From the NCBI RefSeq assembly GCF_018350175.1, contig NW_025408533.1, positions 1-59,649 of the forward strand: a DNA stretch of 59,649 bases, given 5' to 3'. Origin of the DNA: Felis catus. Taxonomy: Eukaryota. Shown here piece after piece: positions 1-44,421 of this stretch. The notes under the pieces were generated by a model that saw only the letters and a program-made list of their open reading frames with translations, was not told the origin of the DNA and searched no databases. Both the position numbers and the translations under genes were made by a program. Each line of letters begins with the position of its first letter. The stretch's first letter is position 1.

Positions 1-2888
<2,888 letters not shown>

Positions 2889-3713: not shown

Positions 3714-4831
3714 ATGGAGGCCACAGATCGAGGCGCAGGCGGTGGGGCCGGCGGTCCCGAGGGTCAGCGTGGCCCGGGAGACCCCGGTGTCCCAGATGGC
3801 CCCGGAGGCCACGAGGGCCCCGGCGGTGGAGGTGGTGAGGGAGAGGAGTGTGCCGCGGCCGGTGCGGCCCCGCGGGTCGCGCAGGCGCCATGTGCTCCCG
3901 TCCCGGGCGCAGCTGCCGTGCCAGGGCTTGGCGGACACCCTTTGCCGGGACCCCGTGGGCACAGCGGGCCCACAGCCGGAGGGCCGGGGAGCCAGCCGCT
4001 GCAGTTGTATCCTCTTGGCCGAGTGGCGGGTGGCCGGGGCGATGGGCCTAGAGGAGGCGACGGGGCGGGGAGCGGAGGGGAGGGGGTTCAGCCTGGGGGT
4101 CCAGGGCAAGGAGGGGAGGGGGGGACCGGGGCACCGGAGGGACCGGCCCGGGGGGCGGATGGGCCAGGGGTGGCCGGGAGGGGTGGCGGGGAGAGGCGGC
4201 CTCCTGATGGACCAGCAAGGAGGGGAGCGGACCGGAGAGGATGGAGAGGGGGGAGAGTGGCCGTGGGGAAAGCAGGCCTCGGAGTGGTCAGGACGCCTGA
4301 GGCACCGACGCGATCGGTTTTCGATGATGCCTTAACCGAATGGCTACCAGCTACGTCACCATGCCTTTCCCGTCACCCACGGAGGCACAGGTGGCCCACC
4401 AGTGTCTGGCAACACAGGGCCAGCCCCAGGTCGGGGCAGTTCGGAAGGAGTTCACGGTACTCGGCAACGTCCTAATTATGTTAGTTCCAAACGGGTCCCT
4501 CGTGGGGGGTGGTGTCAGGTCGCTAGGGCCTATCTCCTGAGGGCCGTTCTAATAGTGAATTGGAGACACCAAAGGTTAGGTCCAAAGAGGTAGGTGTGGC
4601 ACCCTGAGCCTGCGGCCACCTGAGGGGGGGCAGAGAGATAGGGGCAAGAGTGATGACATTTCATTTGGATTTTCTTTTTCCCTCACTTTTAGACGACTGA
4701 CTGCCGAAGACCCTGGCCAACTCCAGGTTTCCATCGCCTCCTGTCTTGACCAGCTTTCCCTGTTGGTTTGGACCATGCAGCGCTTCGTGCCCCCGTTTTT
4801 CACATTGCCGGAGCCAGGCAAAAGGGGCTAA
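3714..4831 (+). CDS. CTAG1B-like: Cancer/testis antigen 1 (NY-ESO-1)/LAGE3 family gene, copy 1; exons 3714-4006, 4351-4479, 4693-4831; 186 aa
   Basis: Spliced product MEATDRGAGGG..GPGSQPLQF-YVTMPFPSPTEAQVAHQCLATQGQPQVGAVRKEFTVLGNVLII-RLTAEDPGQLQVSIASCLDQLSLLVWTMQRFVPPFFTLPEPGKRG* parallels NY-ESO-1 (SRLLEFYLAMPF..KEFTVSGNILTIRLTAADHRQLQLSISSCLQQLSLLMW). Kozak ACCATGG, consistent phases, AATAAA at 4973. Confidence 0.92.
4007..4350 (+). other. U12-type (minor spliceosome) GT-AG intron
   Basis: 5' site GTATCCTC; branch box GCCTTAAC at 4329-4336 just upstream of the AG; no polypyrimidine tract. Confidence 0.85.
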
Positions 4832-5019
4832 TTGTAACCTAGCGTCCCTTCCTTCCCTAGGGCGTCCATTCCGATGCTGGTTGCCGCTTTATTACGGGGG
4901 TCTAATTGTTCGTATTGGACTTTGGGCCTTGTTTTTCCCCATTGCTGGAGGAGGGGCGTTCTTACAGCAGAAAATAAAACTATTTTTCCGCATCTGAGTG
5001 TATTTTCAGCTACAGTGTC

Positions 5020-5177
5020 AGAGCAAGGGGAGAAGGCAGAGAGAGAGAGAGAACCCAAGCAGTTCCTGCGCTGTGAGTGCAGAGCCCGACGCAGTGCTTG
5101 AACCCACCAACCGTGAGATCATGACCTGAGCCGAAACCGACTCAGGTGCTTACCTGACTGAGCCACCCAGGCGGCCC
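5020..5177 (-). mobile_element. Can-SINE (SINEC)
   Basis: Reverse-complement tRNA-derived head (gagccacccagg, gagatcatgacctgagccga) plus GA tract. Confidence 0.85.
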
Positions 5178-5351
5178 TCGTTGATTAATTTTTCAATTGG
5201 AATAGTCATATTTTACTTATTGATTGGTGAATGCTCTTTATATACAAAGATACCAAATCTTGGCCAAAGTAATTGAAAATACTTTCCTTCCTCATTGCTT
5301 CACTGAATTCTTGTTTATAGTTCTATTCTGTACTGGAGGGTTTTTAACTTT

Positions 5352-5540
5352 TTCTTGTATTTAAATATGAAGTTTATTGTCAAATTGGTTTCCATACAAC
5401 ACCCAGTGCTCATCCCGACAGGGGCCCTCCTCAATACCCATCACCCACCCTCCCCCCCATCAACCCTCAGTTTGTTCTCAGTTTTTAAGAATCTCTTATG
5501 TTTTGGCTCCCTCCCTCTCTAACCTCTTTTTTTTTTTTTA
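5352..5540 (-). mobile_element. L1 3'UTR end, felid L1_Fc type
   Basis: ttattgtcaaattggtttccatacaacacccagtgctcatccc..caaccctcagtttgttctcag; reverse complement of the element at 33900-34070. Confidence 0.85.
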
Positions 5541-6197
5541 ATGTATGCAAGTGGTACATTTTTGTCATTATGATCTTTGTAGTTTATGTCCAAGGGAAAG
5601 CCATCCCCACTGTAAAATTATAAAATTTGTCCCTCGTGCCATCTTCTAGTACTTTGAAATGTTAACACACAAGGAATTTATTGTGGTGTGAAAGATGACA
5701 TTGGTCTAATTTTGTCCCCTTCCCCCCAAGGTTCCTCAGGTGTCTCAATGTCATTTATTGACTAATCCATATGTCTCCGCTGAATTGAAATGTCGCCTTC
5801 ACCAGGGTCTAAACCTGCATCTTCATTTCTTCTTGCACATTTGTTTCTCCAGCAAATTTGGGCTAGGTGATCTGGGATGGCCTCTCTGAGGAAACGGCCC
5901 GAAGGTTACAGTAGAGAAAGTTGGGATTGGTGTGGGAGAAGGGACAGACAGAGACAGAGGAGGACAGACAGACCGACCGACAGAGAGATTTGATTGGCTC
6001 AGCTTGGATTGCCCTTCGAAGGGCGCAGGGAGAAACATGAGGACAAGAACGAGATGAAAGAGAGAGAGGCTAGGGCATCAGTGCATTAGAGGACTGTTGC
6101 ACTGGGGATACCGGAGCATTTGGGGTTTTCTTCTTTCGTTAAGAAAAACCTATTATAAATAATACTACCATGAATATTTTGTTTAAAAAGATTGTAC

Positions 6198-6326
6198 AGG
6201 GGCACCTGGGTGGCTCAGTTGGTGAAGCGTCTGACTCTTGATTTTGGCTCAGGTCATGATCTCACAGTTCTTGGCATCGAGCCCTGCATAGGGCCCTGTG
6301 CTGAGCATGGAGCCATCTTGAGATTC

Positions 6327-6363
<37 letters not shown>

Positions 6364-8387: not shown

Positions 8388-8752
8388 TGCACATACATTT
8401 GTAGTGCAAGAAGAAACCTGAAATAAACCATCAAAATGTTTACAGTGAGGTTCTCTCGCGGTGGTGAGGTTATAGAGGGCATTTTTTTCTTTTTTGGTCA
8501 CTTTGTAAGTTTCTGTAACTGCACAACCTATGCAATGACCATGTTTTACTTCCATAAATAGAAAGCAGTGTTTTAGAAAGAGGGGGGGGAAAAAAAGAGC
8601 AACAGAAATATTTGATCGTTGCTGAAAATGGGGGGAAACCTGGCACCCAAAATAGGATTCACCAAATGGATCACGTGCATGACATTTCAAACTCCTGTGT
8701 GATTGGATTCACCCCCAAAGCACTGGCATGTGCCAGCCCCACCCTGGAGAAG

Positions 8753-9338
8753 ATCTTCATGAGCTTACACACATGGGGGGAAATGCCTGGTGGGATGGTA
8801 GGCCGAAGGCCTTCCAGTGCCACCTTCATTCCAATNNNNNNNNNNNNNNNNNNNNNNNNNNNNNNNNNNNNNNNNNNNNNNNNNNNNNNNNNNNNNNNNN
8901 NNNNNNNNNNNNNNNNNNNNNNNNNNNNNNNNNNNNNNNNNNNNNNNNNNNNNNNNNNNNNNNNNNNCCAGGCAGGTGCATACCTGCGCCCAGGGCATTG
9001 GAAGGAGAACCTGACGTCGGCCGTGCTGGTTCGGGCAGTCATGTCCTCATCAATCATTACACTACGGCTGCTGAGCGCGTGTCGTGGGATGAGGGGCTCT
9101 AGAGTGTGTACGAGGGCCATGCCCCTTGCCATGTCCAATGCAAACGTCACAGCCTGGCTCTGGTCCACAGCAAAATTGGTGCCTTCGTGTAATACATTGT
9201 ACAGGGAGGGATCCATATGGCATCCAGTGTGCGACGAGGGTGGGGTGTGGAGCAGGTGGAGACTGACAGGCACCTAGCACTGGGAGCACATTCGGATGTG
9301 AGAAACTCCTGAGCCGGGGACACTCCTCGTTGATTTGA
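8753..9338 (-). pseudogene. ILK: Processed, 5'-truncated pseudogene of integrin-linked kinase (pseudokinase domain)
   Basis: Intronless [39 protein letters not shown] / [21 protein letters not shown] [N run] [28 protein letters not shown]; 4-nt insertion frameshift near 9205. Confidence 0.95.
8836..8967. other. N run, 132 nt
   Basis: Direct. Confidence 1.
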
Positions 9339-9350
9339 TGTGACCAGTGC

Positions 9351-10284
9351 CTAGGAGGCACTTTCTTTCCCGAGGGCCTTGAACAAAGCCCTCTTCACCT
9401 CCTTGTTTCGCATGCTGTAGATGACGGGGTTGAGCATGGGGGTGAGGACCACGTACAGCACAGGGAGCGCCCGGTCCCGCAAGCCAGAGCACGCAGAGCT
9501 GGGGAGGATGTAGCAGAGGACTGGAGCGATGTAGAAAATGCAGACCACGGTGGTGTGAGCACCACAGGTGGAAAAGGCTTTTCTTCGGCCGTCAGCGGAG
9601 TGAATCCTGAGAATCGCAGCCACAACACGTACACAGGAGATCGCAACCGGGGCACGGGGTGCAAGAGCCACCACGAAACTGAAGACGAACAGGGCAAGCT
9701 CGCTGGCCCACGTGCTTGAGCAAGAGAGTCTGGTCAGTGGAGGGAGGCCACAGGAGAAGTGGGTGATGAGGCGAGGCCCGCAGAACCTCAGTGGAGCTGC
9801 AAGGACGGTGTGGGCGAACGCATCGGCCAAGGCAAGCAGGCGGGAGGTGGAAGCCATTCCTGCCCGGGTCCGTCCGACGGCCCAAGAGGACTAGGTGGTG
9901 CGGTGGCCGGCCGATGGCTGCATAGCGGTCACAGGCCATGGCTGTGAGCAGGAAGCACTCCCAGGGAGCCAGGAAGTGGAGAAAGAAGATCTGGGGAAGA
10001 CAAGCACGATAGGGCACGGTCCGCACTGCTGCCAGCAGGTGTTCCAGCACCTGAGGCCCCGTGCTGGAGATATAGGCAGTGTCCAGCAGTGAGAGGTTGA
10101 CTAAGAAGTCGTACATGGGAGTGTGGAGTCGGGAGTCCATCACAGTAAGGCTGGCAATGCCCAGCCACGCTGTGGACCAGCAGAAAGATCACAAAGAGCA
10201 AGGGCCTCAACTCCTCTGCGTCGGCCAGCCCTTCCAGAAGGAACAGCGACACTCGGGTCTCATTCCCCAGCTGCCCGGAACCAT
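9351..10284 (-). pseudogene. Olfactory receptor pseudogene, class II, OR3-family-like (candidate counterpart of human Xq28 OR3B1P)
   Basis: OR motifs [53 protein letters not shown] spread over several frames (frameshifts). Confidence 0.92.
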
Positions 10285-10814
10285 GCGCAGAAACCTGCAC
10301 CTGTAGAGTCCAACTCAGAGTCAGATGAGGATCCAAGTGTGGAGTTCCAATTTGCACAAGGCAGCAGGGGTGAGGGAAGGTCCAGAGACAACAACAACAA
10401 CAAGAAAAAGAGACAGGTTTCAAGCTTAAGAAAATAAGACTCAGAATTGGGGGAGTGAGGCTAGGTTCAGGAGGCCAGCGGTAAGGTCGAGGCCAGTAGA
10501 ATGGAATCGGTAACCCCACACCAAGACAAGGTGCACAGACCTTGAAGCCACGGTGCATGCACCTCCTGCAAGGATATCAAAGTCGGTCCCTCAGAAGCTT
10601 CTACCTGAATAAGGACCCTAGACCTCGTAATTACCTGCAGTGGTCCCCTTATTTCACCCTCACCAACCCAGCAGAGCCCCAACTCAGGAGCAGTGATAGG
10701 ACACTAGTCAGGTCCCTCCTCCTCCCGCTCTGAACCTTTCAGTGCCTCCCATCTCACTCAGCGTCAAAGCCAAAGTCCCCCCGGCGACCTACCAGGCCCT
10801 CTGTGATACGCTCT

Positions 10815-10860
10815 CCCTCCTCTCCTCTCCTCTCCTCTCCTCTCCTCTCCTCTCCTCTCT
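10815..10860 (+). repeat. (TCTCC)n pentanucleotide microsatellite; one unit longer in the right arm (58344-58395)
   Basis: Direct. Confidence 0.9.
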
Positions 10861-12149
10861 GACCATCGGGCAAGAAGTCTGTCAGCTCCGTGCCCCATAT
10901 CACATCTTCGGACTGGCCCACAGCAGCAAACGCCCTTGCCTATCCCCTGCCTCGGTGGAAGAGAGCCCTGCCCTCCTATCCAAGGCTAGCTTGTCCGATT
11001 TCCCCAGCTGCTCTCTTCATTGTGCCAGCCCTGCTCGGCAACCCTTTTACATGGGAATGTGCTAAATGCCACTCGACTGTTCACTCTCAGATGGTTTATT
11101 TTATGTTATCTCGATTTTACCTCCATGAAAAAAGGAAGCAAAATAAAGACTTTTTCAGACATATAAAAGCTGAGATTAACTCGTTGTCAGCGGAAAACCT
11201 GCACTACAACAAATGTTAAAGGCTGTTCTCCACAAGCAAGGATGATAGCACGTGGGAACTTGGACCTACATGAAGTAATGAAGCGGGTTCCAGAACTGGA
11301 AAGTATGTGGGTAAATGTAAACATTTTTTTCTCCCTTCAAAATGTCTCTCAATCGTCGCAAACCATCTAAAGCAAAATTATTGACAACACGGCGTGGGGT
11401 GTGTAACTGCTATAGAAATAAAAGGTATGACAACAACAGCACAAAGGACACCAGTGGGTGGTTGGAAGGGTACTGCTGTAATGTTCTTACGTTACGTGCG
11501 AAGTGATTTGAAATTACTTGAAGGTGGTCTATAATGAGGTAAAACACATATTAGGATCCCTAGAACCCTAGGGTTAATATGTACACTTCTCTGGCGGAGA
11601 TAAAGTGAATTTCTAGAAATTACTCAATCTGAAAGGAGTCGCGAAAAGACAGAGAGGGGAACGCAGAACACATGGGGCAAACAGAAAATAAATAGCAGGA
11701 TGGTAGATGGAAACTCAACGATACCCCTCGTTACATTTATTCTAAATGGTCTAAACGTGGCAACTAAAACACGGAGATTGCCAGACTGGATAAAAAGGCA
11801 AAGCAAAACTATATGCTACGCGTAAGAAATGTGCTCTATGAAGACACAGATACGGTAAAAGTAAAAAGATGGGCAAAGATACACCATGCAAGTCTTCTAA
11901 TAAGAAAGTTTGAGTAGCTATATTAAGAGCAGGCAGAACAGACTTCAGGACAAGGAATACGATGGGGTGGAGGACGTTTGCTAACGATAGAGGGGTCACT
12001 TTGTGAAGAAGACATAAAATCAAAACCTAAATACACAGTAGGAAAGAAATAATGAAGCTAAGAGGAGATATGAATAAAACGTTAAATGGACAAACAATAG
12101 AGGAAAATCCATGAAGCGGAAAGCCTTTTTTTCCTTTCTTTCTTTTCTG

Positions 12150-12830
12150 TTTTAATGTTTATTTTTGACACAGAGAGAGACAGGGAGCGAGTGGGGGAGG
12201 AGCAAAGAGAGAGGGGGGACACAGAATCCGCAACAGGCTCCAGGCTCCAGGCTCTGAGCCGGCAGCACAGAGTCCGATGCGGGGCTCGAACCGACGGACG
12301 GACCGTGAGATCATGACCTGAGCCGAAGTCAGACCTTTAACCGACTGAGCCACTCAGGCGCCCTCTCCCCCACTTTTTAAAGGTTTTATTCATTTTTGAG
12401 AGAGTGCATGTGGGGGAGGGGCAGGGAGAGGGGGACAGAGGATCTGAAGTGAACTGCGCTGACAGCAGCGAGCCCCATGTGGGGCCTGAACTCACCAACT
12501 GCCAGATCGTGACCTGAGCCAAAGTCGGACGCTCAACCGACTGAGCCACCCAGGTGTCCCTGAAAGCTTCTTTAAAACAAACAAACAAACAAACAAACAA
12601 ACAAAAAACATACCAGGGGCGCCTGGGTGGCTCAGTCGGTTGAGCGACCGACTTCGGCTCAGGTCATGATCTCGCGGTCCGTGAGTTCGAGCCCCGCGTC
12701 GGGCTCTGTGCTGACAGCTCAGAGCCTGGATCCTGTTTCAGATTCTGTGTCTCCCTCTCTCTGACCCTCCCCCGTTCATTCATGCTCTGTCTCTCTCTGT
12801 CGCAAAAATAAATACATGTTAAAAAAATGT
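12150..12830. mobile_element. Cluster of three Can-SINEs: ~12150-12363 (-), ~12375-12560 (-), 12616-12830 (+)
   Basis: Three SINE heads and tails, with (AAAC)n between. Confidence 0.9.
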
Positions 12831-13964
12831 TTTTCTAAAAATACCAATAAAGCTGATTTTGAAAAATAAAGTGTAACCAGGGAATATTAGGAACAATATT
12901 TGTGGGTAAGTTTCCCAATTTAGATGAAATGGACAAATTCCTTGAATGACACAACTTACCAAAACTGACTCAAGAAGAAATAGAAGACCCGAATATCTAT
13001 GAAAGCAATGGAGCCGAAAACTCCAGGCCCCCGTGGCTTTACTAGTGGCTACCTCCAAATACTTAAAGGAGAACTATCACCAATCCTACGCAAATGCTTT
13101 CAGGAAGCAAAGGAGGAGAAACATTTCCCAAATCATCTTATGAGGCCAGCATTACACAACCCCAAAACCAGATGAAGACATTGCAAGAAAAGAAAACCAC
13201 AGGGCAATATCCTTCAGGAAGTCACACACACAAAAGAACTTGATTCGATATTAGCAAATTCAACCCAGCAACATACAAAGAGGATGATACCATCATGGCC
13301 AAGTGGGGTTTATCCCAAGAATTGGTTTTCATTAAAAACAAAAAAGTCAATCAGTGTCATCTGTCATATTAAGAAAATAAAGGAGAAAAAACATGTGATC
13401 ATTTCAACAGACACAGAAAAAAAGCATCAGACAATATCCAACAACCACTCGTGACAAAAACTCTCGGAAAACTAGGACTAGAGGGAAACGTTCTTAATCT
13501 GATAAAGGGAACCTACAAAAATCCTACAGCTAACATGATACTTAATGGTGAAAGATAGAATCACCGCCCCCGCTCCCTCGCCCGCAAAGTTTGAGAAACA
13601 AGGTATGGATGTTCACCACTTCCATTCAACACTGTCCTGGAAATCCTAGGCAGTGCACTAGGCAAGAAAGAGGAATAAAAGTAGTGACACAGATTGCAAA
13701 AAAAGAAAAGGGATTATCTTTATTCAGAGATGACATGCTTGTTTACGTAGAAACCCCTAAGTGATGTACAAAAAAAAGAAGAGTGACATTTTAAAAAATC
13801 ACTACCATTTATAATAGCATCCCCAAACATGAAGTATTTGGGGACACATGTAATAACATATGTGCAAAACCTTTACGGTGAACACTAAAACCTATTGATA
13901 AGTGAAAGAAAGCTTACAAAAATGGAGAAACGCATCCTATGCGTGGAGCGGAAGATCCTGTATT

Positions 13965-14066
13965 CTTTTTTCTTTTAGCGTTTATTTATTTATTTTGGAA
14001 GAGACAGAGAGAGCATGAGCAGGGGAGGGGCAGAGAGAGAGAGAGGGAGCGAGAGAGGGAGGGAGG

Positions 14067-14102
<36 letters not shown>

Positions 14103-14229
14103 CCCAAGCAGGCTCGGAGCTGTCAGTGCACACCCCGACTCTGGGCCCGGTCTCACAAACCGTGAGATCATGACCTGAGCCGTAATCAAGAGTCAGACGC
14201 TTAATCGACTGAGCCACCCAGGTGCCCCA
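13965..14229 (-). mobile_element. Can-SINE
   Basis: Head, (GA)n tract, flanking repeat cctgtattctt. Confidence 0.9.
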
Positions 14230-15404
14230 AGGCCCTGTATTCTTAAGATGTACACTCCCACCACACCATTCTAGAAATTCATTGCAAACCCAGTAAAAAT
14301 CGTGATAACGCAGAAATGGACAAGCTGATTCCAAAGTGTATATCCAAATGCAAAGAACCTGGAATAGGCAGCTCGAACTTGCAAAAGAGGAATAAAGTCG
14401 GGAGACACAGGATGACTAAAAGAGGATACAGACACAATGGAAAGTTCACATGTCACTGGTGGGACTGTAAATTGGTATGATCACATCGGAAAACAGTGCT
14501 TCCGTTTCTTATACAGTCACACTTACGCTTACCATGTGACCCAGAAATCCCACTTCTGCTAGTTACACAAGGGAATTAAAAATATATGTGTGTGCAAAGA
14601 CTTGTACGTGAATCTTCGTATCAACTTGATTAACGATAACCGCAGTTTGGAAACAAGCCAAACGTCCAATAGCAGGTGAGTGGTTAAGCCTAAGTTACGG
14701 TACATCCACGCAATGGAATACCGGTCAGCAACAAAGAAGGATGGACATACTGTGTGATTCCTGGAAATTCCAGAAAAGGCAAAATCTAAGCTGAATTTGC
14801 TGTGTGGGGGCAGACTGTAGAGGAGGACATTGTCTGCACGGAGGCACAAGGGCGACTGTGAGAGCGATGGGAATGTTCTGTATCTCGGCTTTGGCTGTGG
14901 ACACCTTTGTCGTAACTCATGAAACCGTACGCTTAAATGTGTGCAACTTCCCATACGTGCATTTTGCCTCAAATAAGCTGAGCAAAAACAAAAAAAGAGA
15001 GGGGACAAACAAAAACTGAATAGCAAAATGGCAGACTTACATCCGACCATATCGGTAATCGTATTAAATGTGAATTTGCCAAGCAGTCCAATTTAAAAGC
15101 AGACATCGTTAGAAGGGTGCTTTCTTTAAGTGACCAAACTACACGCTGTCTACGTGAGCCACATTCAAGATACAAAGACACCAATAGGTTACAAGTAAGA
15201 GGATGGAAAAGGACTTACGAATAAATAGTGAGCAAAGAAGCCTGATGTGGTTATATCGATATTAGAGAAATCAGACTTCGAGGAAAACTGTGTTACCAAA
15301 GATGAAGGGATGCGTTTCATACTAGTAACAGCAGCAATGAATCCATCTGGAAGAGAAAATGATCATAAATATGTCTGTGCCTAATGACACACCTTCAAAA
15401 TGCA

Positions 15405-15650
15405 CGGGGCGCCTGGGTGACTCAGTCGGTAAGCGTCTGACTTCGGCTCAGGTCATGATGTCACCGTTGGTGAGTTCCAGCCCAGCGTCGGGCTCTCTGC
15501 CCGTCGGCACCGAGCCTGCTTTGGATCCTCTGTCCCCCTCTGTCTCTGCCCCTCCCCCACTGGCTCTCTCTCTCCCCCTCTCTCAAAATAAATAAACTTA
15601 ACACACACGCACACACACACACACGCACGCACGCAGACACACGCGCGATG
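15405..15650 (+). mobile_element. Can-SINE followed by (CA)n
   Basis: ggggcgcctgggtgactcagtcgg head. Confidence 0.9.
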
Positions 15651-16059
15651 CAAGAATTTTTGAGATTAATAGGTGAAAGGGACAAGTCCAAAATCACGGT
15701 TGGAGTTTTTAACATCCTCTCTCAGCAAGCGAGAGAGAGAGACAACACACTCTGTTAAAAGAAATAGAGCAGGGATTGGCAAACTACCGCCTCCTGGCCA
15801 AATCCAGCCCGGGGCCTCTTTTATGTGAAAAGTTTGTTGTCCCCTGACATAGAACATACGATCAGTGGTATCACCTACCTTGACCGATGTCTTTAGAACA
15901 CTAAACAGGAGATCTGAATTTCACATGTGTGTCCACTACACATTGTTTTCAAGTACAAGTATGTTCGCCAAGATAAAGCATTTTCTGAGCCACGGACCAA
16001 TTCTCAACACATTTCAACGTCAAGGATTGAAATTTAACCCGGTACGTCTCTGACCAGCC

Positions 16060-16335
16060 TTGCCTTGTTCTTGATTCTAGAGGGAAAGCTTTCAACCTCT
16101 CACTGTTGCGTATGATGTCAGCTGTGGGTTTTGTCGTATGTGGGCTTTGTGGTATTGAGCTATACAACTTTTCTCTGCCCCCATTCGTGGAGGATTTTTA
16201 TCATGGAAATATGTTCTATTTTGTCAAACGCGTTTTCTGCACCTAGGGAGATGATCATATGGTTTTTATCTTTCATTCTAACGATGCGGTGCTTCGTTTA
16301 TAGACACGCATGTGTTGAAAGATCCTTGTTTTCCG
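16060..16335 (-). mobile_element. Inverted L1 ORF2 fragment
   Basis: ccttgttcttgattctagagggaaagctttc..atgatgtcagctgtggg..gagatgatcatatggttttt. Confidence 0.8.
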
Positions 16336-16640
16336 GCTGCAGGTTCCTCCTGCCCGTGCCCGGAGATGAGAGCTGCCTGCCCCGTAGACAGTGACAAAGA
16401 ACAGGGCAGACAGAGACAGTCCGAGGCTCAGGCTGAGGCGCTCTTTGGTGACACTGCTCATTGAAATGCTTCCACCAGCCACAGGCCGCTCTAGACACTG
16501 GCCACCTTCTTGCTGTGACACCTGCCTCCAGGACAAGGCAGCTGTGCCTTTACTTTCCTCACTTGTCCTGAGGACCTATTCGGAGACGCTCAGGTACAGA
16601 TTCGTGACTATAGAGTCACGGAGTTCTACACAGCTCAGTC
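16296..16640 (+). repeat. 345-bp inverted repeat unit A (pairs with 19158-19502)
   Basis: Reverse complement of 19158-19502 with few mismatches; the same ORF-track peptides appear on opposite strands. Confidence 0.95.
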
Positions 16641-17096: not shown

Positions 17097-18253
17097 GTGA
17101 GGGCAGCAGACGAAGGCACGGGTGCCGTGGGCGTGGTGGTGGGCGCAGCAGGTGGTGGCCAGTGTGTGCCAGGTGGACCTCGTGGTGTCAGTGGCCCCAG
17201 AGTCCCTGGTGGTTCGGGTGGTGCCTGTGACCCTGGCCATCCCAGCAACCCCGGAGGCCTGAGCGATCCGGAAAGAACCAGCATTGTGGGAGAGGTAGGT
17301 GCCGCCTCTGGTGGCGCTCTCCAAATGGAGCGGGCACCCTACACACCAGGTCCTGGTGGAGATGCCGCGCCTGGCGCTAGAGGTCCTGGTAACCGACTGC
17401 TTCAGTTGTATCCTATTCAAGGAGTCCCAGCGGGCTGGACGGCAGGGGGATGGGCTGGAGGTGGTCTGGCGCGCGGCGGGGTGGGGTGTGGGGGGGAGAC
17501 TTGGGGAAGTGGAGTTGAAAGGGGAGCAGGAGGGAGCTCCGGGCACCTGGAGGGTATCGGCTAGGGTTTGGCCCGTGCTGACAGAGGATGGGGAGTGGGG
17601 TGGACCGCCTGATGGGACTGAAGCGGTAGGGACAATGCTATCCGGGGTGGCCTGGCTGTATAGGGTGGGAGGTTGTGGACAGCCTGAGGGTCAGCCTGGG
17701 GTGGGGAAGGCAGGCCTCACTGAAGAGGAGGCCTGAGGCACAGGCAAAATTAGTACTGTGGATGGTGCCTTAACCCAGTCTCCACCAGCACCCTCACTAT
17801 ACCTTTCCCCTCGGCCATGGATGCGGAGATTGCCCACAGGTTCCTGACTCCAAACGAGGAGCTCCAGGAGCCAGTTCGGGAGGAGCTCCATGTGAACGGC
17901 AGCATCCTGACTGTGTTAGTTCTAGAACGGTCCAGGGAGAGGGTGGTGGCAGGTGACCAGGGACAAGGTCAATTCCGGAGGAGCTGTAACGGAGACAAGG
18001 GAAACAGGAAAGGAGTGAGTCGAAGGAAGGAGTGTGGTGCTCTAGGATCGTTGCTGTGTGAAGGGGCGGAGCGGGGAATGTGCCCCACCGGCCCTCTAAC
18101 TTGACTTATTTTTTCCTACCTCGTAGCCGCTTGACTGCCGATGACCCTGGCCAGCTCCAAATGTCCATCACCTCCTGTCTTGGCCAGCTTTCCCTAGTGA
18201 TACGGGCCATGCAGATCATCATGCCCCCCTTTTTCACAAAGCCGCAGCAGTGA
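17097..18253 (+). CDS. CTAG-like: CTAG/LAGE3 family copy 2; exons 17097-17407, 17789-17914, 18127-18253; GTG at the ancestral start (187 aa), first in-frame ATG at 17325 (111 aa)
   Basis: ..GARGPGNRLLQF-TLTIPFPSAMDAEIAHRFLTPNEELQEPVREELHVNGSILTV-RLTADDPGQLQMSITSCLGQLSLVIRAMQIIMPPFFTKPQQ*; U12 intron 1 (GTATCCTA, GCCTTAAC at 17767); CCAAT upstream at ~16920. May be a young pseudogene. Confidence 0.82.
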
Positions 18254-20304: not shown

Positions 20305-21402
20305 AGTCAGGCTTGAGAGAGCAGATGATGCCATCCAGGGCGCCGGGCAGCAGCACTCCCCGCACCAACAGCACGACGAGGACCACGCAGGGGAAGGTAG
20401 CCGTGAAGTACACGATCTGGGGCGGGGGAGGGACGGGGGGGGGGTAACCTGCTCAGAAGGGGCCCTGCGGCCCCGCCTCCCCACTTAGGGGTCCCCAGCC
20501 TCAGCAGGGGGGCAGGCGGGCCACACTCCCCCCACTGTGGTACGGTCCGCTCCGAGGTCAAGCGGGAGGCCAGCCTGCAGCCCCCCCTTCTACTCCTCAG
20601 AGCCTGGGCTCCTCCCGAAGGAAGCGGGGTGCTCAGCTGGCCACCGGCCGCCCCCGCAAGGACAGGTCAGCTGTAGAGAGGGAGGGCGGAGGCAGGACCT
20701 TCCCCGGGTGGGGAGCAGGACATCGGCCTGGAGGCAGGTCCCATGCCTCCTGTGGTTCTCTGCACAGAGGCAGGGTCCTGGGCAGGACAGAGTGGACTGG
20801 GCCGGCCGGAGACAGAGGCGACAGCGAGGTGACCGCGAAGACCTCTGCCTCCGTCCCACCCTCAGCAGAGCAGGACAGGTAGGCAAGGGAGGGCCACGGG
20901 CCGGGTCCCCCCAGGCTGGCCGCAAAGCAGAGAGTGAGGAAGTAGTGAGTGAGGAAGAGAGGGAAACTGGGGCAGGGATGCCCGACACAGGCAAGTTCAG
21001 CTGGGGGTCGCCTGGGCCTGTCCCCTCAGGACGGAAGTCGGCTGGGCTGGAGTGTGGAGGTTGCGGAGCACTACCCAGGCACGCGTGGGAAATCCACCGG
21101 GCTGGGTTCAAGGACCTGCCCCCGCCTCAGGCCCTGGCCCGGTCACCTCGCATGGCAGGGTCCACCTGCCCCCCCCTAGCGGAGACACCCCTTCTCCCCA
21201 CCGGCCATGCTGCCCCCACCCCTGCCATCATCACCCACCCCGACCCGCCGGCCTCCAGCTGTACCTTTCCTGTTGACTTGACCCCCTTGCAGACACAGAA
21301 GTAGGCCAGCACCCAGCAGGCCTGCAGACACAGGGTCACCTCCCAGTTGAGGGCCCCTGGCACGTCCAGCCCCCCCACCCCGAGAGCCGAAAGACTTTGT
21401 TC
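20305..21402 (-). pseudogene. SLC6A8: Second SLC6A8 fragment: exon 4 (21265-21402, +5 nt frameshift) and exon 5 truncated at ~20305
   Basis: [35 protein letters not shown] and [37 protein letters not shown], then homology stops; the intron is homologous to 1887-2733. Confidence 0.92.
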
Positions 21403-21954
21403 CTGGGGGGAGGGGGGGACAGCCCGTCAGGGCTGCCGCAGCAGAGGGCAAAGCGACCGGGGAGCTGTCGCCGGGGCGGTGCTCCCCCGAGCCGCTGCCC
21501 TCAAGTCCAGGTGGGCCCCCCTGGGCCCCCGGCCCAAGCCCACAGCCATTGCAGTGGGAGGCAGGAGCCCGGGAGCCCCCGGCCGGAGGCCGGTCGCGCC
21601 CTCGGCGGTGTACCCTCCCCCAGGCTGGCAGGCACTAGGGGACTGACGGCGCCCGGGACCGACAAATGGTGAGGGAGCCAGGCCCATCCCTTCCAGCTCC
21701 CCTAGGGGCCGTGCGGGGTGTGCTCCCTGAGGACAGGCAGGGCCTGGGAGTGGCCCCTGCTCGGCATCCCGCGTAGGCCCCCCCCCCCCGGCCCCCGGGT
21801 CGCAGGGCCCCCGGGACACGCAGACCCGAGCCGTACGGGGAGCCCACAGACAGGGACAGGCACGGTGCTGCCCAGAAGCGCCTGAGCGCGGCCCACGCCT
21901 CGATGCCCGGGACCGGGCGGGCGGCGGTCAGCTGGCTGCTGGCAAGTGCGCCCG

Positions 21955-22240
21955 GCTGGCGCCTGCGCAGACACAGGCTTGGGGGGAGGGGCGGGCCGGG
22001 CCGGAAACAGTCACGTGCCAGTGGCCTCACCAGAATGCTCTCGGGGACGTAGGAGCCCGACAGTGACGTCACGCGTCGGGGGGCGCAGCGTCCGGAACCA
22101 GCCTCCATCTCCTCGGGGTCAGCGTCGACCGGATCCAGGCTCTGCCGGCTCGGTGGGAACCAGCTCCGCGGGGTCTGTCTGCGCAGGCGCCCTGGCCATC
22201 CCCGACAGCCTTGCGCGCCGAGGGGCCGGGCTTCGCGAGG
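21955..22240. promoter_or_regulatory. CpG-island promoter upstream of LAGE3-like copy 3
   Basis: NRF1-like (21959 and ~22180), ETS (22001), E-box (22011), CRE (22064-22071); the proximal block 22170-22260 is homologous to 31438-31530. Confidence 0.65.
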
Positions 22241-22317
22241 CCTGCCAGGGGTCTCAGCGGTCGGCCGACAGTGGGCGCAGCGTAGCGGTGGGCTCTGAGG
22301 AGGCCGGTGCGGCGGCC

Positions 22318-23457
22318 ACGAGGGCCCCGGACGACGAAGCGGCCTCTCCGGCCCCGGACGACGGCGCGGAGGAAGTGGCGGTCACGCAGGCCCCTGACGA
22401 TGACGGCGCGGACGGCGCGGCGGTCACGCGGGCTCCCGAGGGTGGCGCGGAGGACGCGGGGGCAGGCCCACAGGCCTCCGACGGAGGCACGGACGGCCAC
22501 GACCCCCAGCTTAGCCCCCGAGGTCCCGGTTGCCAGGGCAACTGCAGCCGCCACGATGGCGAGGGTGGCCCTGGCAGCAAGGGAGCAGTGGTCGAGGGGG
22601 CCTGCGCCCCTCCCCTGGCCGAACGGGCCCCGAGGGCCCTGGCCCCCGGTGGAGACGCAGCGCCGGCGGCGGCGGCGGTGACCTCCTCAGGACTGCTGGA
22701 GTTGTATCCTTTCCGTGGAGCCTGTCTGGGCAGGGGCCGTGGCGGGGTGGCTGGGGAGCAGGGCGGCAGCCCGGGGACGGGATGGACGGGGGCGGGGGTG
22801 GGCAGCCTGGCGGGCCCCCAGGGTGGGGGAAGCGGCTCAGGGTGGGCAGAGGTGGCGGGAGGGAGCGCGAGTGTCCCGGGGGTAGAGGCGGGCCTCTGAG
22901 TGGTCAGGAGGCTTCAGGCCATGGGAACTCCAGGAGCCCGTTGTGCCTTAACCGGGTGCCTCCCAGCAGGCTCACTGTGTCTTTCCGGTCGCCCCTGGAG
23001 GCAGAGATGGCCCGCAGGGCCCTGACTACACACGTCCAACGCCACCGAGGGTTGGCTCAGAAGGAGCTTTGCGTGAGGGGCAGCGCCCTGGCCGTGTGAG
23101 TCCTCCAACAAGAGTATGCGCGGGACGGGTGGGCGGTGGCGGCGGGTGCCGTGGTCGCATCTCTGCCTTCCAGTGCCGTCGTGGAGGCCCCGACGCACGC
23201 TGTTAGGTGGAAGGCGGGGGGGTGGGGGGTTGTGTGGGGGAAGGGGCTGGTGCCCTGCACCTCCACAGCAGGTCTCCCCTTTAACCGGATTTCCCTCTTC
23301 CCTCACTTCTAGGAGATGGACTACTGAAGACCCCATCTGCTTCCGAGTTTCCGTCAACTCCTTCTTGGACCGGCTTCCCCTGGTGATACGAAACATTCGC
23401 GCCTTGGGGTCCCGGCCTCCGCGGCGCCTAGGTCCGGGAAAGGGGGCCGAGGCCTAA
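22318..23457 (+). CDS. LAGE3-like: LAGE3-like copy 3; exons 22318-22703, 22967-23095, 23313-23457; ACG at the ancestral start; 219 aa if used
   Basis: ..SSGLLEF-RLTVSFRSPLEAEMARRALTTHVQRHRGLAQKELCVRGSALAV-RWTTEDPICFRVSVNSFLDRLPLVIRNIRALG..* parallels LAGE3 (FTLSVPFPTPLEAEIA..VRWKAED..RISVINFLDQLSLVVR); U12 intron GTATCCTTT / GCCTTAAC at 22945. No in-frame ATG in exon 1. Confidence 0.8.
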
Positions 23458-24779
23458 CCTGGTAGCCCTCACTGGGCAAGGCACGGGGCGTTGACACTTG
23501 GCGTCCTCGCCACTTTACTATCGGGGGTCTAACGTTCTGCAGGTCCGGGCCTCGGTGGCTCTTGGCCCACTTCAGTTCCTTCCCTGCGCCCGGAGGGACG
23601 GGCGCTTACGTGTTTGTCACTGCACAACATGAAACTGAGCTACTCTTTTGTGTCCGAGTTTCTTCTCAGTTCCTGCGCCTCCACATTTTCTTACCTTTGT
23701 TCTGGTGTTGGAAGGGAGGTTCTGGGAATCGTAGTCCAGCAGCCCAAGCTTATCGAAGACGACTCAGGGAGAGGAAAATCAGGTCCTATATTCAGCGGTA
23801 AATACTGCTGACGTTTTGGAATACGTTCCTAGTTGTATTTACCCGTTGAATGGATAGCAACGTATAACGTATCCATTTTCCAGTTTAGCGTTAACTTTTC
23901 TCCGGATCCTTTTTGTTTCGTTTTGTTTTGTTTTTGTTTTTCCCCGTTGAACGTACTAGCTTTCCCACTCCCTAAAACCCTTCAAAAACTGTTATCCAGG
24001 AGACACACAAATGTATTATTACATAATGTTGAGCAGTCGGGTCGTTCTCAGCTTTGCCCCTATTATGGGTCGTGTGAGTCAATGGGATTCTTGAACAGAA
24101 GTCTTTGCGCGAACAGTTACTTCCTTCAGATCGTTTCCAAGAGGTAGAATTCCCGCGTTCTATAGCTTCTCGGCACACAAGTGCTCTCCAGAAAAGGCGC
24201 CCCGCCGCCAGAAGTCTGGTCTCCCCGCATCACCAACCAGTAGGGTGGCTTCCTACCGAAGTAGAAGACTCCTTTTGTACCAGGGAAATAAGCACGGAAA
24301 CACTAGAATAGGAATTTTGGGGCTTACTGGCCTTGTTTCCGATGAGCAAGGGGGTGGTGCCACAAGTGGCTACGGGTTTGGGGGCGGGGTGGGGGGTGGT
24401 TAGCTCCCTCTGAGTAGCTTGTGTCTTGGAACCTCGCTAAACAGGAGTGCTAGCCTCACGAGGGTTCCCTCGGAGTTTCTACATGCATGGTCGTGATCTC
24501 TGCAAGCAAACACGGTTTTGGTTCCTTCCTTTCCGGCCTTGCCGGGGCTACGGGGGCGGGGGGAGGGAACAGGCTGACACTGGACAGATGGGAAGCAAGA
24601 GCAAGAAGGCACATGGCAGAGAACCAAATCCTGGATCCAGCCACGCCTGAAGACAGAACTATCCGCCCCCCGCCCCCGCCACGATCGTTCAGTTACACAC
24701 ATCCAGAAACTCTCCCTTTGGTTAAGCCAACATGAATCCTTTTTTTCTTCTTTCTTTCTTTCTTTCCCTTTCTCTTTTG

Positions 24780-24993
24780 TTTGAATGCTTTTATTTAGTG
24801 TTTGAGAGCAAGACAGAGACAGCGTGAGCGGGGAAGGGGCAGAGAGACAGAGAGGGAGACACAGAATCTGAGGCAGACTGCAGGCTCTGAGCTGTCGGCA
24901 CAGAGCTCGACGCAGGGCTCAAACCCACGAACTGTGAGATCGTGACCTGAGCCGAAGTCAGACCCTCAACCGACTGAGCCACCCAGGCACCCC
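24780..24993 (-). mobile_element. Can-SINE
   Basis: Head and tail; the (TTTC)n tail is longer in the mirror copy. Confidence 0.9.
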
Positions 24994-26295
24994 CGTCGTG
25001 AATACTTTTTTTTGCTTTTCTTTTTGTCTGTCTTCACTTGTAATAGAAAAGTCTTGTCCTTTATTGACTCGAGGAACCGTAGGTTTTCTTGTCACTTCAC
25101 CTGAGAACGTGGCTCTCCCTTCTTTTAACGGAGAAACTGGGCTCTTTAAGTTTACAAAGGCATTGGCTCCTAGCTGGTAGGCCTTCAAGCCGTATGGTGG
25201 TAGAGTCTTCTGTGGGTAAGAGTCCAGAGAGGGAGGGGAGGGACTGCAAGGGGCAGCTGGAGGAAAGGGACAAAGAGAAGGGGCACTGGGACCCACCCTT
25301 TCCGGATAGGGCTCCCAAGACTGGCCCGGAATTGTGGGGCCAGATCGTCAAGAGACCGGAACTTAGTGTGAGCCTCCCTCCCTCTCCCAGCAAAGCCCAG
25401 AGTTAGGCCACCGCCCTGGCCCCACAGACGGACTGCTGAAGGCGCCGGGCGGCCTTAACACGTCAGTCAGGTCACAAAACAAGTCGATTCCAACGCGTCC
25501 CCGGGCTCCCCTCCCAGAGACGAGCCAGAGCCCTGCCCCGCGGCCCGCCGCGTCAGATGTGATCCGGCCCGCATCTTCCACGGCCTCCTTCCCTCCCCTC
25601 TCCACCTTGCTCACTCTCGGATCCAGCCACACTGGCCTCCTCCCTTCTCTGAAACACACCAGGCCCAGGCCTGCCTCAGGACCCTTGCACTGCCTCTTCC
25701 CTGCCTGGACCTCTCGTCCCCCGGGGTTCCATCTGGCCCACTCAAATAGCATTCCTGGCCGCTCTCCTTAAGGTTGCGTCCCACGCTCTCCCCACCTGCA
25801 TTACTTTCACAGGTGTCGGGGGGTAAGAAGCAGGTGGGCCCGTCAGCATGGAGGTGCACGTGCGGCAGTAAAGCGTCGTGGGACACGAAGGAGCTTGGGT
25901 GCTGTCGATGACCCTAGGGAGTCTTGAACGGAGCGGGACGGGATGCAGCTTACGTCTTATCAGGTTCCCGGTGCCTGCTGCGCTGGGAAGGGGACGAGGG
26001 CAGGCAGGACAGAAGTGGGGAGACTGGCACGCAGGCGAGAGACCCCCAGGCTGCGGCCAGTGGAGGTGGGGAGAAGGGAACGGGTTCCGACCGGATCTTG
26101 ACGGGAGAGCCACCGGGGTTTGCTGGCACGGATCGGACGTGGCCCTGGACCTCCTCAGATGCGCGGGACCCGTGCAACGGGTCACCCTTCCTCCCACAAA
26201 GGGAGCCCAGCTCCTCCAGAGTCCAACAGCCTCCCCACCTGCCTCCCTGCTCGCCGACCACCCACCTGCCACACACTGCCACCGTTTTCCCGACG

Positions 26296-27346
26296 TTTAA
26301 TTCAGAAACAAGGTTCCAGGAACAACGACAAAGAAGCTCATGCCAAAACAGAGGGGACAGCTGGGTTTCCGGGACCACGCGCCGGGGCCAGATTCCTCGG
26401 AGGGGGAAGAGGGAACAGAGGGGTAAGGCACTGCCGCCTCGGCCACTCGGGGCGGGCGCAGGACAGGGCAGCGGGGGTGAGGGGTCCGGGCTGAGCGGGC
26501 ACCACGCCGAGGAAGCTGGGCGCTCGGGCCTGGAGAAGGAGACTTCCAGAGCCCCCAGGCCCACGTGGGGCCCTGGCACGAACCCGCTCATAGCTCCCCA
26601 GGTGCTGGGGACAGGGCGCCCGAGAAAGGTACGGTCCGACCCCCGAGAAGTCCGGAGGGGATGCCGGGACCCAGCCGCGGGGAGACCCCTGGGCGCAGCC
26701 ACAGTCTGGGGACGGCTTCGCCGCATCACCCTGGGCGCCCCCCTCCTCGCCATCAAGTGCTGCTGGTGTCGGGGGCCCCTGCTCGGACCCGGCGGGGCCG
26801 GCCACGGCCAGGGGCAGGTGCCAGAGGCGAGGCCGAGGCTGACCGTGCCACCAGGGAGCCAGGACGACCCAAGGACAGAAGGGGCGTGAGGTTGTCCACA
26901 TCCCAGAGAAGGGGCACGTGGTGACAGACGGACACGGTGAGGTGCAGATAAATTAAATAAATAGGTGGTTGGGGGTATAAACAGGAAGAGGGGGCAGGGG
27001 CTGGCACGACCCGGGGGCACGAGGGTGGGAGGGCGGGGATATTGCTGCTGCCAGGTCAGGACCCTTGGTCCCGTCACCATCGCCCCCACGCAGGGCCCAA
27101 AGAAAGGCACTAATGAAGGGGGCCCGGGTGTGCGCAGGGCACGAGAGTCCGGTGACCACCCCATCCCCGCCCCCGTGCCACCCGATCCAGGGCTCGGCCC
27201 CGAGGTCATCTCAGGCCTGGGACGCCCCCTCCTCACCGGTTCCGCCACCCTTAGCTGTTGCCGGACAAGAGGCTGATGGTCTGTTCCAGGTTTTGCCCCA
27301 ACTTAGGCTTCCGACAGGAGGCGTCTCGGTCCAGAGCGGTGAGGAC
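26296..27346 (-). pseudogene. PLXNA3: Orphan terminal exon and 3'UTR of plexin A3 (coding 27251-27346; ATTAAA at 26296-26301)
   Basis: Acceptor ctcccccag then VLTALDRDASCRKPKLGQNLEQTISLLSGNS*, matching the PLXNA3 C-terminus (ILTALDRDASCRKHKLRQKLEQIISLVSSDS); no upstream exons seen. Confidence 0.88.
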
Positions 27347-27599
27347 CTGGGGGAGGAGGGCCCCCCCGGAGCCGGGCTGGCGAGGAGGGGCCGCTCCCTC
27401 CCTTGCCAAGCCGTCCTCCCCTGCCTGAGCTCTTTTGTCCCTCCTGCGTCCACGCACCCCGCTCTCTGCGGGTCCCCGGCACGTGGGAAGGGCTACAGCC
27501 CCCCACCTCTGCACACGCTGCGACTTGGCCACCCCGAAGCCACCGCCTTCTCTGCTCGGCGGCCACAGTGCGGCCCTTCCCGGGAGTGGTTTGGACCCG

Positions 27600-28322
27600 C
27601 TGTCCCCAAACGCCCCGTCCCCTCCTGGCCCACACCCCATCTCCCCATCCCCTCCTGAACCCCAAACCCGCACATGATCTCCCCGTCCCCTACTGACCCG
27701 GAATCTGGACCCAACCTCCAGGTCCCCTCCTGATCCCCACCCCGCACCCAATTCCCCATCCTCTCCTGATCCGGAATCTGGACCCAACCTCCACACCTGA
27801 TATTCCTGTGTCTTCCTGACCCCCACCCTACCCCACATCCAACCTCCGCCATCCTCTTGACCCCCACTGCCCACTCAACCTCCACGCCCCACCTGGCCCC
27901 CACCCCACACCAAACCTCATCTTTCCCTGCTGACCCCAACCGCCACCCCACACCCGATCACCTCGTCCCCTCCTGACCCCAACCCCATACCGCACCCGAT
28001 GTCCCCATCCCTTCCTGACAACCACCCCGCACCAGACCTCCTTGTCTTCTCCTGACTCCCACCCAACCGAAACCCGAATTTCCCGGCCCCTCCTGACACC
28101 ACCCCACACCCAACCTCCCATCCCCTCCTGACCCCCACCCTGCACCCCAATTCCCCATTGACTCCTGACCCAGAATCTGCACCCATCCTCCACTTCCCCT
28201 CCTGACCCCTGTTCCTACCAAGCACCCGATCACTTTGTCCCCTTGTGTCCCCACCGCCAACCTGCACCCGACTTCCCCATCCCCTCCTGACACCCACCCC
28301 GCACCAGACCTCCTTGCCCTCC
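27600..28322 (-). repeat. Degenerate ~30-35 bp G-rich minisatellite (C-rich on +)
   Basis: Recurrent cccctcctgacccc / cccgcacccga units. Confidence 0.9.
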
Positions 28323-29146: not shown

Positions 29147-29177
<31 letters not shown>

Positions 29178-30120: not shown

Positions 30121-30127
30121 TTCATTC

Positions 30128-30151
30128 AGATTAGATGATAGATAGATAGAT

Positions 30152-30184
<33 letters not shown>

Positions 30185-30192
30185 GATAGATG
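30128..30192 (+). repeat. (GATA)n microsatellite
   Basis: Direct. Confidence 0.95.
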
Positions 30193-31580
30193 AGAATGGA
30201 AGCTGAGTGGTCCCATGACCTGCTGCCTGCAAGCTGAGCGGGAGACCCGGCAAAGCTGATGGTGTAATTCAGCCTGAGTCTGAAGGTCTGAGAACCAAGG
30301 GAGCTGGTAGCAGTGTAAATGCCAGTCCCAGGGGGCAGGACAAGGTGAGATGTGATGTCACAGCTCAACAGTGAGGCAGAGGAAAGGCCTGGGGGAGAGA
30401 CCAAATTCCTCCTTCATTCCTCCACTTTTTGTTTCATTCGGGCTCTCAATGGATTGGACGATGCCTGCTCAACATTGGGGGTCTACTTTACTGAGTCCAC
30501 AGATTCAAACGCTCATCCCATCCGGAAGTACCCTTGCAGACACACCCAGAAATAACGTTCTGTCAGGGTACCCTATGCCCAGGCAAGCTGATACATAGAA
30601 TTAGCCATCGAACCCAGTGAATGAGCCGCTTTTAGGAGCGTGACCTCAGCATGCACATAGTCACCACTCTTTGACACAGGTGACTGCCCAGTGGGACTGT
30701 GTATTGCACAGAGTATCTGCCTTTCTCCCTATAGAATGGGGGCCAAAAACGTAAGTGACAAAGAAACCATCGATAACCGACTATGTCAAAATTTAAAAGT
30801 TTTGTTCTGCAAACAGTACCAATCAAGAAAGTGAGAAGACAACCCATAAAATGGGCGAATGTATTTTAAAATCATGTGTTTGATAAGGGACTTCTATCCA
30901 GAACATATCAATAGCTCTTGCAAGCGAGGAATGCCGTTATTCTTAGAAACGGGAAAGTTTGAGAGTGGCAGACACTTTGTAAAACGATCCAACTTCCCTC
31001 AGCTTGCCACCCTCCACCCGCCATGTATCGATGGGGCAATTGAGACGCACCGAGGGACCACAGGGATACCGGCAGATTCTTTCCCTCAGTGCACACTTCT
31101 CCAAGTCCTAACCATGGTGGCCAGCGTCCCCACAAAGCTAAGGCAGCCACGTCTTGACCGCATTACCCGCGCCACATTTGCCCCTTTGTCTGTCCCCCTT
31201 CGTCTGGCGTCACTCCACCTTCCGCCAACCCCACGCTCCTACTCTAACCCTCCGTCCAGAATAAGAGGGGCCTGTTTGCACAGGCGCGCGAGGGAGACTG
31301 AGTTGCGTCGCGTACTGGGGGCGGGGCTTCGTCAGGGAGCCCTGGCTCTCCAGCGCTGCCGACGGGGTCTCCCTGGCGGCCCGTGGGCAGCCGGGCCAGC
31401 TTGGCGGGAACCAATCACATGCCAGAAACCTCACCAGAGGTCTGTCTGCGCAGGCGCCCTGGGCATCCCCAGCAGCCTTGCGCACGGAGGGGCGGAGCTT
31501 CGTGAAGCAGTCCCAGCGCCTCAGCGGTCGGTGGGGCGCGCGTTTTGGCGGCGGCCTCTGAGCGGGCGGGTGTGGGGGCC

Positions 31581-32680
31581 ATGCAGGCCCCGGGCGACGG
31601 TGCGGACGGCGCGGACGGCGCGGACGGCGCGCAGATCCTGGACGACGGCGCCGGTGGTGCGACGGGTAGTGCTGGCTCGTCCAGTGGCCCCGGAAATCCC
31701 GGAGGCCGGGACGGCACCGCGACGTCGGGCACCGTGGCTGGGGAAGCTCCCCAGGTCGAGGGGGCATCGCCCTCCCCAAGGCAGGGGGGAGAGGCTTCGG
31801 CCTCGGCCTCGGCCTCCGGGGAAGCCTCAGAAAAGCAAGTGTTGGAATTGTATCCTTTCCAAGGAGCTCCCGAGGTCGGGGGGGCAGTGGGGAATGGCTG
31901 GGAGGGGAGGCAGGTGGGGGCCCCGTTGGATGGGCGGGAGAGGTTTCGGGGACTTGCGGGGGCACAGAAGGGAAGTGGTGGGGGGGGGCTGAGGGAGGCT
32001 GGAGGAAGCAGCTGGGGGTGCCGTGATGCACGTTTCCTGAAGGGGCGGCCGAGGTGGTCTTGGGTGGCCCTAAGGGCGGTCTGGGGGAAGGCGGGCCTCC
32101 GATGGGCAAGGAAGCCTCCTCCATGAGGTCCACCCAGATGTGCCTTAACCGAATGTCCACCAGTGCCCTCACGGTGCCTTTCCTGTGTTACGTGGATGCG
32201 GAGCTGACCTACCAGTACCTGACCTCGAGTGCCGAATGCTACCACGAAGCGGTTCACACGGAGCTCACAGTGATTGGCAGTGACTTGTTTATGTAAGTTC
32301 TAGAAGGGGCTGGCGGGAGGCAGTGGGAGCTGAGGTAACCTCTGCCCGACGGACACTTCGGTTGGAGATGTGCAGACACCAAGGGCTTGGTCTAAGGAGG
32401 CACATGGGGCCCCGGGTCTGTGGCAGCCTCAGGGGTTGCTCTAAGGGAGACACGGAGGAGTAACCTTGAGGGGGGAGATTGGAGTGAGGAGGGCCAGGAG
32501 TTCTCAAATCTAAAGTGATTTCCTTTTCCCCTTACTTTTAGCCGACTAACTGCTGAAGACCCTGTCCTCCTGCAGATTTCCACCGCCTCCTTGCTCAACC
32601 AGCTTTTCATGGTGGTGCAGACCATGCAGCACTTGGTGCCCGCGATTTTTTCTAGGCCTCGGCCTGGAAAAGGGGGCTGA
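31581..32680 (+). CDS. CTAG-like: CTAG/LAGE3 family copy 4 (in the palindrome spacer); exons 31581-31849, 32164-32292, 32542-32680; 178 aa
   Basis: MQAPGDGADG..EKQVLEF-ALTVPFLCYVDAELTYQYLTSSAECYHEAVHTELTVIGSDLFI-RLTAEDPVLLQISTASLLNQLFMVVQTMQHLVPAIFSRPRPGKGG*; GCCATG start, U12 intron GTATCCTTT / GCCTTAAC at 32142, AATAAA at 32839, CCAAT and NRF1-like sites upstream. Confidence 0.9.
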
Positions 32681-44420: not shown

Positions 44421-44421
44421 A

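Follow-up and report, generated by a model that had tools for sequence, protein, structure and literature searches.

The LAGE3/CTAG minor intron in human, mouse and cat

In the rows available from the supplements of Olthof et al. (2019, PMC6717393), the minor-intron genes include human LAGE3, CTAG1A, CTAG1B and CTAG2 and mouse Lage3, Ctag2, Gm6880 and Gm6890; a supplement of PMC8034651 likewise gives the four human genes as minor-intron genes. A supplement of PMC11347168, a study in which 263 species including Felis catus were classified, assigns the mouse Lage3 intron to the class "minor" and records a response in 3 of the 6 data sets on U11 loss; according to bioRxiv 2021.03.05.434172, Lage3 is down in the Rnu11 knockout (cKO). 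The initial annotation of the cat locus raised the question of whether intron 1 of human LAGE3/CTAG is already catalogued as U12-type, and these listings of human and mouse members answer it in the affirmative. The minor intron of LAGE3/CTAG is already known, and its presence in the cat copies is not novel. A literature search found no paper whose main text takes up the minor intron of CTAG/LAGE3 or the cat cluster, beyond a passing mention of Lage3; the supplement of PMC3728624 contains no match for the family, and neither CTAG nor LAGE3 is named in the main text of the review PMC6865273. The present result is of small significance: a minor intron already on record for this known family is now described in its cat copies as well, and the cat LAGE3/CTAG paralogs can join the minor-intron lists.

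The window, i.e., the whole stretch of DNA analyzed here, is an entire 59.6-kb contig of Felis catus, much of which is filled by a palindrome with arms at approximately 9560-27772 and 41414-59649 (99-100% identity). Four paralogs lie on its plus strand. Paralog A (3714..4831; exons 3714-4006, 4351-4479, and 4693-4831; 186 aa) and paralog B (17097..18253; exons up to 17407, 17789-17914, and 18127-18253) are identical to the Felis catus records P0017, named cancer/testis antigen 1-like, and P0039, named LAGE3-like, respectively, B from its ATG. The transcript of paralog C (22124..23639; exons 22124-22703, 22967-23095, and 23313-23639) was obtained as a spliced contig from runs X12 and X13, and paralog D (31581..32680; exons 31581-31849, 32164-32292, and 32542-32680; 178 aa) was modelled from homology alone. 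The initial annotation recognized A to D and missed two minus-strand copies in the palindrome arm, whose U12-type first introns were found by a donor+branch+AG scan: a copy of C (46236..46498, donor at 46498) and a copy of B (51414..51794, donor at 51794).

On the basis of their predicted domain, A to D are members of the Pcc1/LAGE3/CTAG family. When exons 2 and 3 of A to D were used as queries, 7 of the 8 matched Pcc1 (PF09341), four of them over the Pfam cut-off (A exon 2, E 2.4e-5; A exon 3; B exon 2; C exon 3) and three below it (B exon 3; C exon 2; D exon 3, E 0.014). D exon 2 had neither a Pfam match nor a usable Atlas match, and D was alignable to A, B, and C across the Pcc1 domain. B matched human LAGE3 (PDB 6gwj_B) with E 3.7e-21. 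A to D share with the Pcc1/LAGE3 subunit of EKC/KEOPS a predicted Pcc1 domain, encoded by exons 2 and 3, and differ from it as diverged paralogs. In a tree that included no human CTAG sequence, each paralog clustered with its counterparts in other cats and the deep order was unsettled; accordingly, none of the paralogs is claimed as the one-to-one orthologue of a human CTAG gene.

Over its first 52 kb the window matches contig C47 at >99%, in three blocks that reach as far as an assembly gap; therefore, the window may be redundant with C47 or fit its gap. We infer that C47 represents the X chromosome from two indications, namely which genes lie nearby and the X linkage of the family in human and mouse. 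The donor+branch+AG pattern occurred 19 times in 430 kb of C47, twice outside the family and 17 times within it (LAGE3, one LAGE3 duplicate, and three A, four B, five C, and three D copies), so that intron 1 is kept in 17/17 of the family copies found there. The gene at C47:126344645 was called the parent LAGE3 because it gave the strongest Pcc1 match and served as the template of a processed pseudogene. Its intron 1 is in the same phase and has the donor GTATCCTAG, CCTTAAC, and a length of 314 nt, compared with 316 nt in human and 322 nt in mouse in the PMC6717393 rows. In those rows, the human and mouse introns share with the cat introns the family, a T-T/GTATCCT-type donor, and the CCTTAAC branch site, and every paralog listed retains the minor intron, as in cat. 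Species and copy number differ, with 17 cat copies on the X contig and 6 in the window, and the cat donors are nearer the consensus than those given there for human CTAG1A/B (GTATTCTGT) or mouse Ctag2 (GTATCTTTT). Inheritance of the intron by paralogs is also what the review PMC6865273 expects of duplicated minor-intron-rich families (sodium/calcium channel alpha subunits, matrilins, E2F); compared with these, the cat genes are short, have three exons, and were duplicated into a local palindromic amplicon that is X-linked. We consider it highly probable that A to D are duplicated LAGE3/CTAG genes carrying the minor-class intron 1 of the parent LAGE3, which they likely acquired by DNA-level duplication and have likely kept because its removal is needed.

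Splice signals of intron 1

GTATCCT and GCCTTAAC were found in the first intron of all four paralogs, with GT-AG ends. The donors are GTATCCTCTT at 4007 (A), GTATCCTATT at 17408 (B), and GTATCCTTTC at 22704 (C) and 31850 (D), and GCCTTAAC is located at 4329, 17767, 22945, and 32142, respectively; every donor (4/4) and GCCTTAAC (4/4) placed in the initial annotation was recovered. On the plus strand, intron 1 occupies 4007..4350 in A (344 nt), 17408..17788 in B (381 nt), 22704..22966 in C (263 nt), and 31850..32163 in D (314 nt), and in each it is a phase 2 intron whose removal joins an open Gly/Ala/Pro-rich exon 1 in frame to exon 2. Positions +1 to +7 of the 5' splice site, RTATCCT(TT), are exact in A to D. 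The CCTTAAC-type branch site lies near the 3' end, with 12 nt between GCCTTAAC and the AG and the AG ending 15 nt after the second A of CCTTAAC (4/4 in both respects). Published rows with the same −3 to +7 strings score 97.07 and 98.35 with the human matrix in the available part of PMC6717393, scores that belong to those rows and not to the cat introns. Six donor+branch+AG sets were observed in the window, compared with a mean of 0.20 and a maximum of 2 in 300 block shuffles; the six are non-independent copies of one ancestral intron, and what the test excludes is chance alone. Lone GCCTTAAC sequences at 25452 and 43734 were rejected as candidates, since the donor+branch scan paired no donor with either.

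The 12 nt before the AG contain 6-9 pyrimidines with 2 T in intron 1 and 10-11 pyrimidines with 5-6 T in intron 2. Intron 1 of B and C is C-rich there (9/12 and 8/12 pyrimidines), without a distinct polypyrimidine tract. The initial statement that intron 1 has no pyrimidine tract is more accurately worded as the lack of a T-rich tract, and the U12-type class is borne out by the donor, the branch site, the branch-to-AG spacing, and the lack of a T-rich tract. Intron 2 is U2-type, as had been proposed, with a weak GTTAGT donor in A and B. The interiors of intron 1 are 47-61% alike over aligned columns, which agrees with the earlier view that the signals were conserved while the interiors diverged; however, the interiors remain above shuffles in 6/6 pairs, and intron 2, which has likewise kept its own splice signals, shows just as much divergence (51-59%).

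In the mechanism we propose, DNA-level duplication of LAGE3 would have passed the minor-class first intron to each copy. U11 would pair with the donor at approximately +4 to +9 and U12 with the CCTTAAC branch site, as is established for the class and presumed for cat, in whose genome U11 and U12 genes were found. How far an AG lies from the branch point would then decide which acceptor is used; the optimum for U12 acceptors is 11-13 nt and the choice is error-prone, according to PMC3584512. Setting by distance would account both for the skipping of a too-close AG in B and for the nearby alternative ends in gene models (3 nt downstream in C, 7 nt upstream in A). This extra AG in intron 1 of B lies 5 nt past the branch A and is out of frame by 10 nt, and it was rejected as an acceptor on these grounds and because it was used in 0 of the 8 records spanning the B junction. 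The minor spliceosome would have to excise intron 1 in order to join the low-complexity exon 1 to the Pcc1 domain. With intron 1 retained, the frame ends after 253 (A), 155 (B), 193 (C), and 181 (D) codons without the Pcc1 domain. Because retention halts translation before this domain in every copy, removal of intron 1 is required for the product. A requirement for minor splicing is distinct from regulation by it. By analogy with mouse Lage3, whose intron responds when U11 is lost, intron 1 of A to D is likely to depend on the minor spliceosome in cat.

Transcript and protein records

A single 1036-nt contig, present in X12 and X13, joins 22703 to 22967 (263 nt, GT..AG) and 23095 to 23313. X12 and X13 do not differ in size or depth and probably represent a single data set deposited twice; their status as RNA is the tool's guess, and the contig nevertheless lacks both introns. 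C was compared with 4 of the 24 listed runs, among which X11 covered the 3' end of C only and the raw RNA run X24 gave 0 reads on C in the approximately 2% of the run that was read. The spliced LAGE3 model aligned to the processed LAGE3 pseudogene on C47 across both junctions (319 nt, 75%), whereas the unspliced gene aligned to it in exon 3 only.

A junction peptide fitting the U12 donor was found in 56 of 60 retrieved public proteins: 15 with the exact A junction (14 identified by script and P0026 by eye), two with an A junction 7 nt earlier, eight with the B junction, 17 with the exact C junction, and 14 with a C junction 3 nt downstream. Of the other four, three start inside exon 2 and one reads through the intron. 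The 60 records are redundant and mostly predicted, so that they reflect annotators' models rather than independent splicing, and in other cat species the junction was read from the peptide only. The 14 records imply a tandem acceptor of C 3 nt downstream (22969), and the two A records imply an alternative GT..GG end at 4343; GT-GG U12 introns are on record in PMC1557818. The initial annotation took the conservation of the signals to support real splicing of all paralogs. This holds for C, in which the contig joint is exact, while for A and B the junction is that of public models. In vivo splicing of A, B, and D would be expected from their sequence signals.

Position +8, rival readings and start codons

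The donors of A (GTATCCTC) and B (GTATCCTA) match GTATCCTTT at 8/9 positions and those of C and D (GTATCCTTT) at 9/9, the sole non-consensus position being +8. In the mouse and human columns available from PMC6717393, the base after GTATCCT is T in 722, C in 62, G in 43, and A in 26 cases (non-T, 131/853), and rows seen there that differ only at +8/+9 have identical scores (for instance, LAGE3 and VPS52; CTAG2 and MCTS1). The +8 base of the parent LAGE3 is A in cat and mouse and T in human. A bare duplex with the 5' end of cat U11 was predicted to have 6 bp and −4.9 kcal/mol for C and D and 4 bp and −3.4 kcal/mol for B; A and the parent LAGE3 were predicted to pair in other registers. The meaningful grading of 5' splice sites proposed initially is not supported: it comes down to one base, which also varies in the parent LAGE3 and leaves the published score unaffected in the rows seen. 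The +8 differences likely represent tolerated drift, and a small effect on splicing is possible, as the duplex model would allow. The natural donor variants of the four paralogs on one short gene scaffold would be a handy minigene set for measuring such an effect.

A tuned control, in which +8 sets U11 binding, the splicing of A and B lags behind that of C and D, and the output mix follows minor-spliceosome activity, is highly doubtful. It draws on the weaker U11 duplex predicted with A or C at +8, on a later published matrix that spans +4 to +9, and on the constancy of each paralog's donor across its copies. A broader version seems very improbable; it would make the cat minor intron a dial, with +8 giving paralog-specific rates, a loose acceptor giving A a second exon-1 frame joined to Pcc1 (GT..GG), and the amplified, spliced, ATG-less C being translated from ACG.

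Decay would mean that B, D, or domestic-cat C are pseudogenes whose splice signals linger for want of time. The absence of an ATG from C in 7/7 assembly copies, the loss of the ancestral start and the CpG depletion (o/e 0.45-0.52) of B, and the long branch (0.86) and Pfam-negative exon 2 of D are in line with this reading. It is nevertheless unlikely, given that the frames are open in 21/21 modelled A to D copies, that the signals persist while the intron interiors are only 47-61% alike, that 7 records ranging from Panthera to Felis annotate B at 111 aa, and that C is transcribed and spliced. That the major spliceosome excises intron 1, using U2-type sites close by, is extremely improbable, even though some minor introns use major components according to published work. 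A simple scan around the site found one U2-like donor in B (17295), one in D (31914), and none in A or C, and no T-rich tract precedes the AG of intron 1. For C the reading is contradicted, because the observed joint uses the U12 ends. Inheritance of the minor-class intron from LAGE3 remains the preferred reading.

The start codons form a separate matter, in which the most promising side lead is the loss of the start codon in C. C has a 219-codon open frame from ACG at 22318 to the stop at 23457 with no in-frame ATG in exon 1, and the first in-frame ATG of the spliced contig is at 23007. At 22318, 7/7 C copies of the cat assembly have the codon ACG. In public records this position is Thr in 8/29 (7 of them named Felis catus) and Met in 21/29, all 21 from other cat genera. 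Cat models of C contain extra upstream exons, are 363-451 aa long, and bear names such as collagen-like and spidroin-like. Because the domestic cat has ACG where other cats have Met, these long models are likely artefacts of the lost start codon. The U12-type intron had been suggested as the cause of mis-annotation; 56 of the 60 records use its donor, and the errors in C trace instead to the lost ATG. In B, the ancestral start (17097) is GTG, an in-frame ATG at 17325 gives 111 aa, and 8/8 records are annotated from the later ATG.

Start positions of paralogs B and C

An ACG was observed at the start-codon position of paralog C, one of the four LAGE3/CTAG copies, at 22318–22320 (+), as well as in its palindrome copy. 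This position lies in the context GCGGCC-ACG-A; ACG was present in all copies in this assembly (7/7), and public protein records of other cat genera show Met here. Despite the ACG, paralog C retains transcription and splicing, and its frame is open. Paralog C carrying ACG may represent either a non-AUG start or a young pseudogene.

Paralog B carries GTG at the position of the ancestral start (17097, +), and an in-frame ATG is located 228 nt downstream at 17325 (+). In addition, the promoter and exon 1 of paralog B were depleted in CpG.

Splice sites of introns 1 and 2

Two public cat protein records, P0014 and P0060, imply a GT..GG intron in paralog A at 4007–4343 (+), whose end precedes the main acceptor by 7 nt. 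The implied end would fuse the Pcc1 domain to a second exon-1 reading frame.

GTTAGT was found as the intron-2 donor at 4480 and 17915 (+), and also in the LAGE3 duplicate on C47, the contig that carries the parent LAGE3. An in-frame stop is located at the intron-2 donor in LAGE3 and in paralogs C and D, and is removed where the donor is GTTAGT. In the tiger record P0012, paralog B is read through past the GTTAGT donor.

Palindrome, contig placement and other gene fragments

The palindrome arms (9560–27772 and 41414–59649) are 99–100% alike, and a G-rich minisatellite with a period of ~37 nt was mapped to their inner ends (40337–41557 and 27648–28209). The first 52 kb of the window were also found on C47, adjoining a 500-N gap. 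Therefore, the window contig may be redundant or misplaced in the assembly.

Copies (98%) of the stretch directly past the 3' end of LAGE3, containing a plexin-A3 C-terminal coding piece, are located at 25971–27761 and 41436–43215. A creatine-transporter (SLC6A8-like) gene fragment lies within the amplicon at ~280–3545 (−), with partial repeats at 20296–22027 and 47175–48904. The integrin-linked-kinase-like sequence at ~8670–9400 (−) is frameshifted, lacks introns and is likely a processed pseudogene; the olfactory-receptor sequence at ~9350–10190 (−) needs two frames and is likely a pseudogene. Elsewhere on C47, LINE-like sequence surrounds a processed pseudogene of LAGE3 (~4100–4800 of stretch L047), which bears a poly(A) tail.
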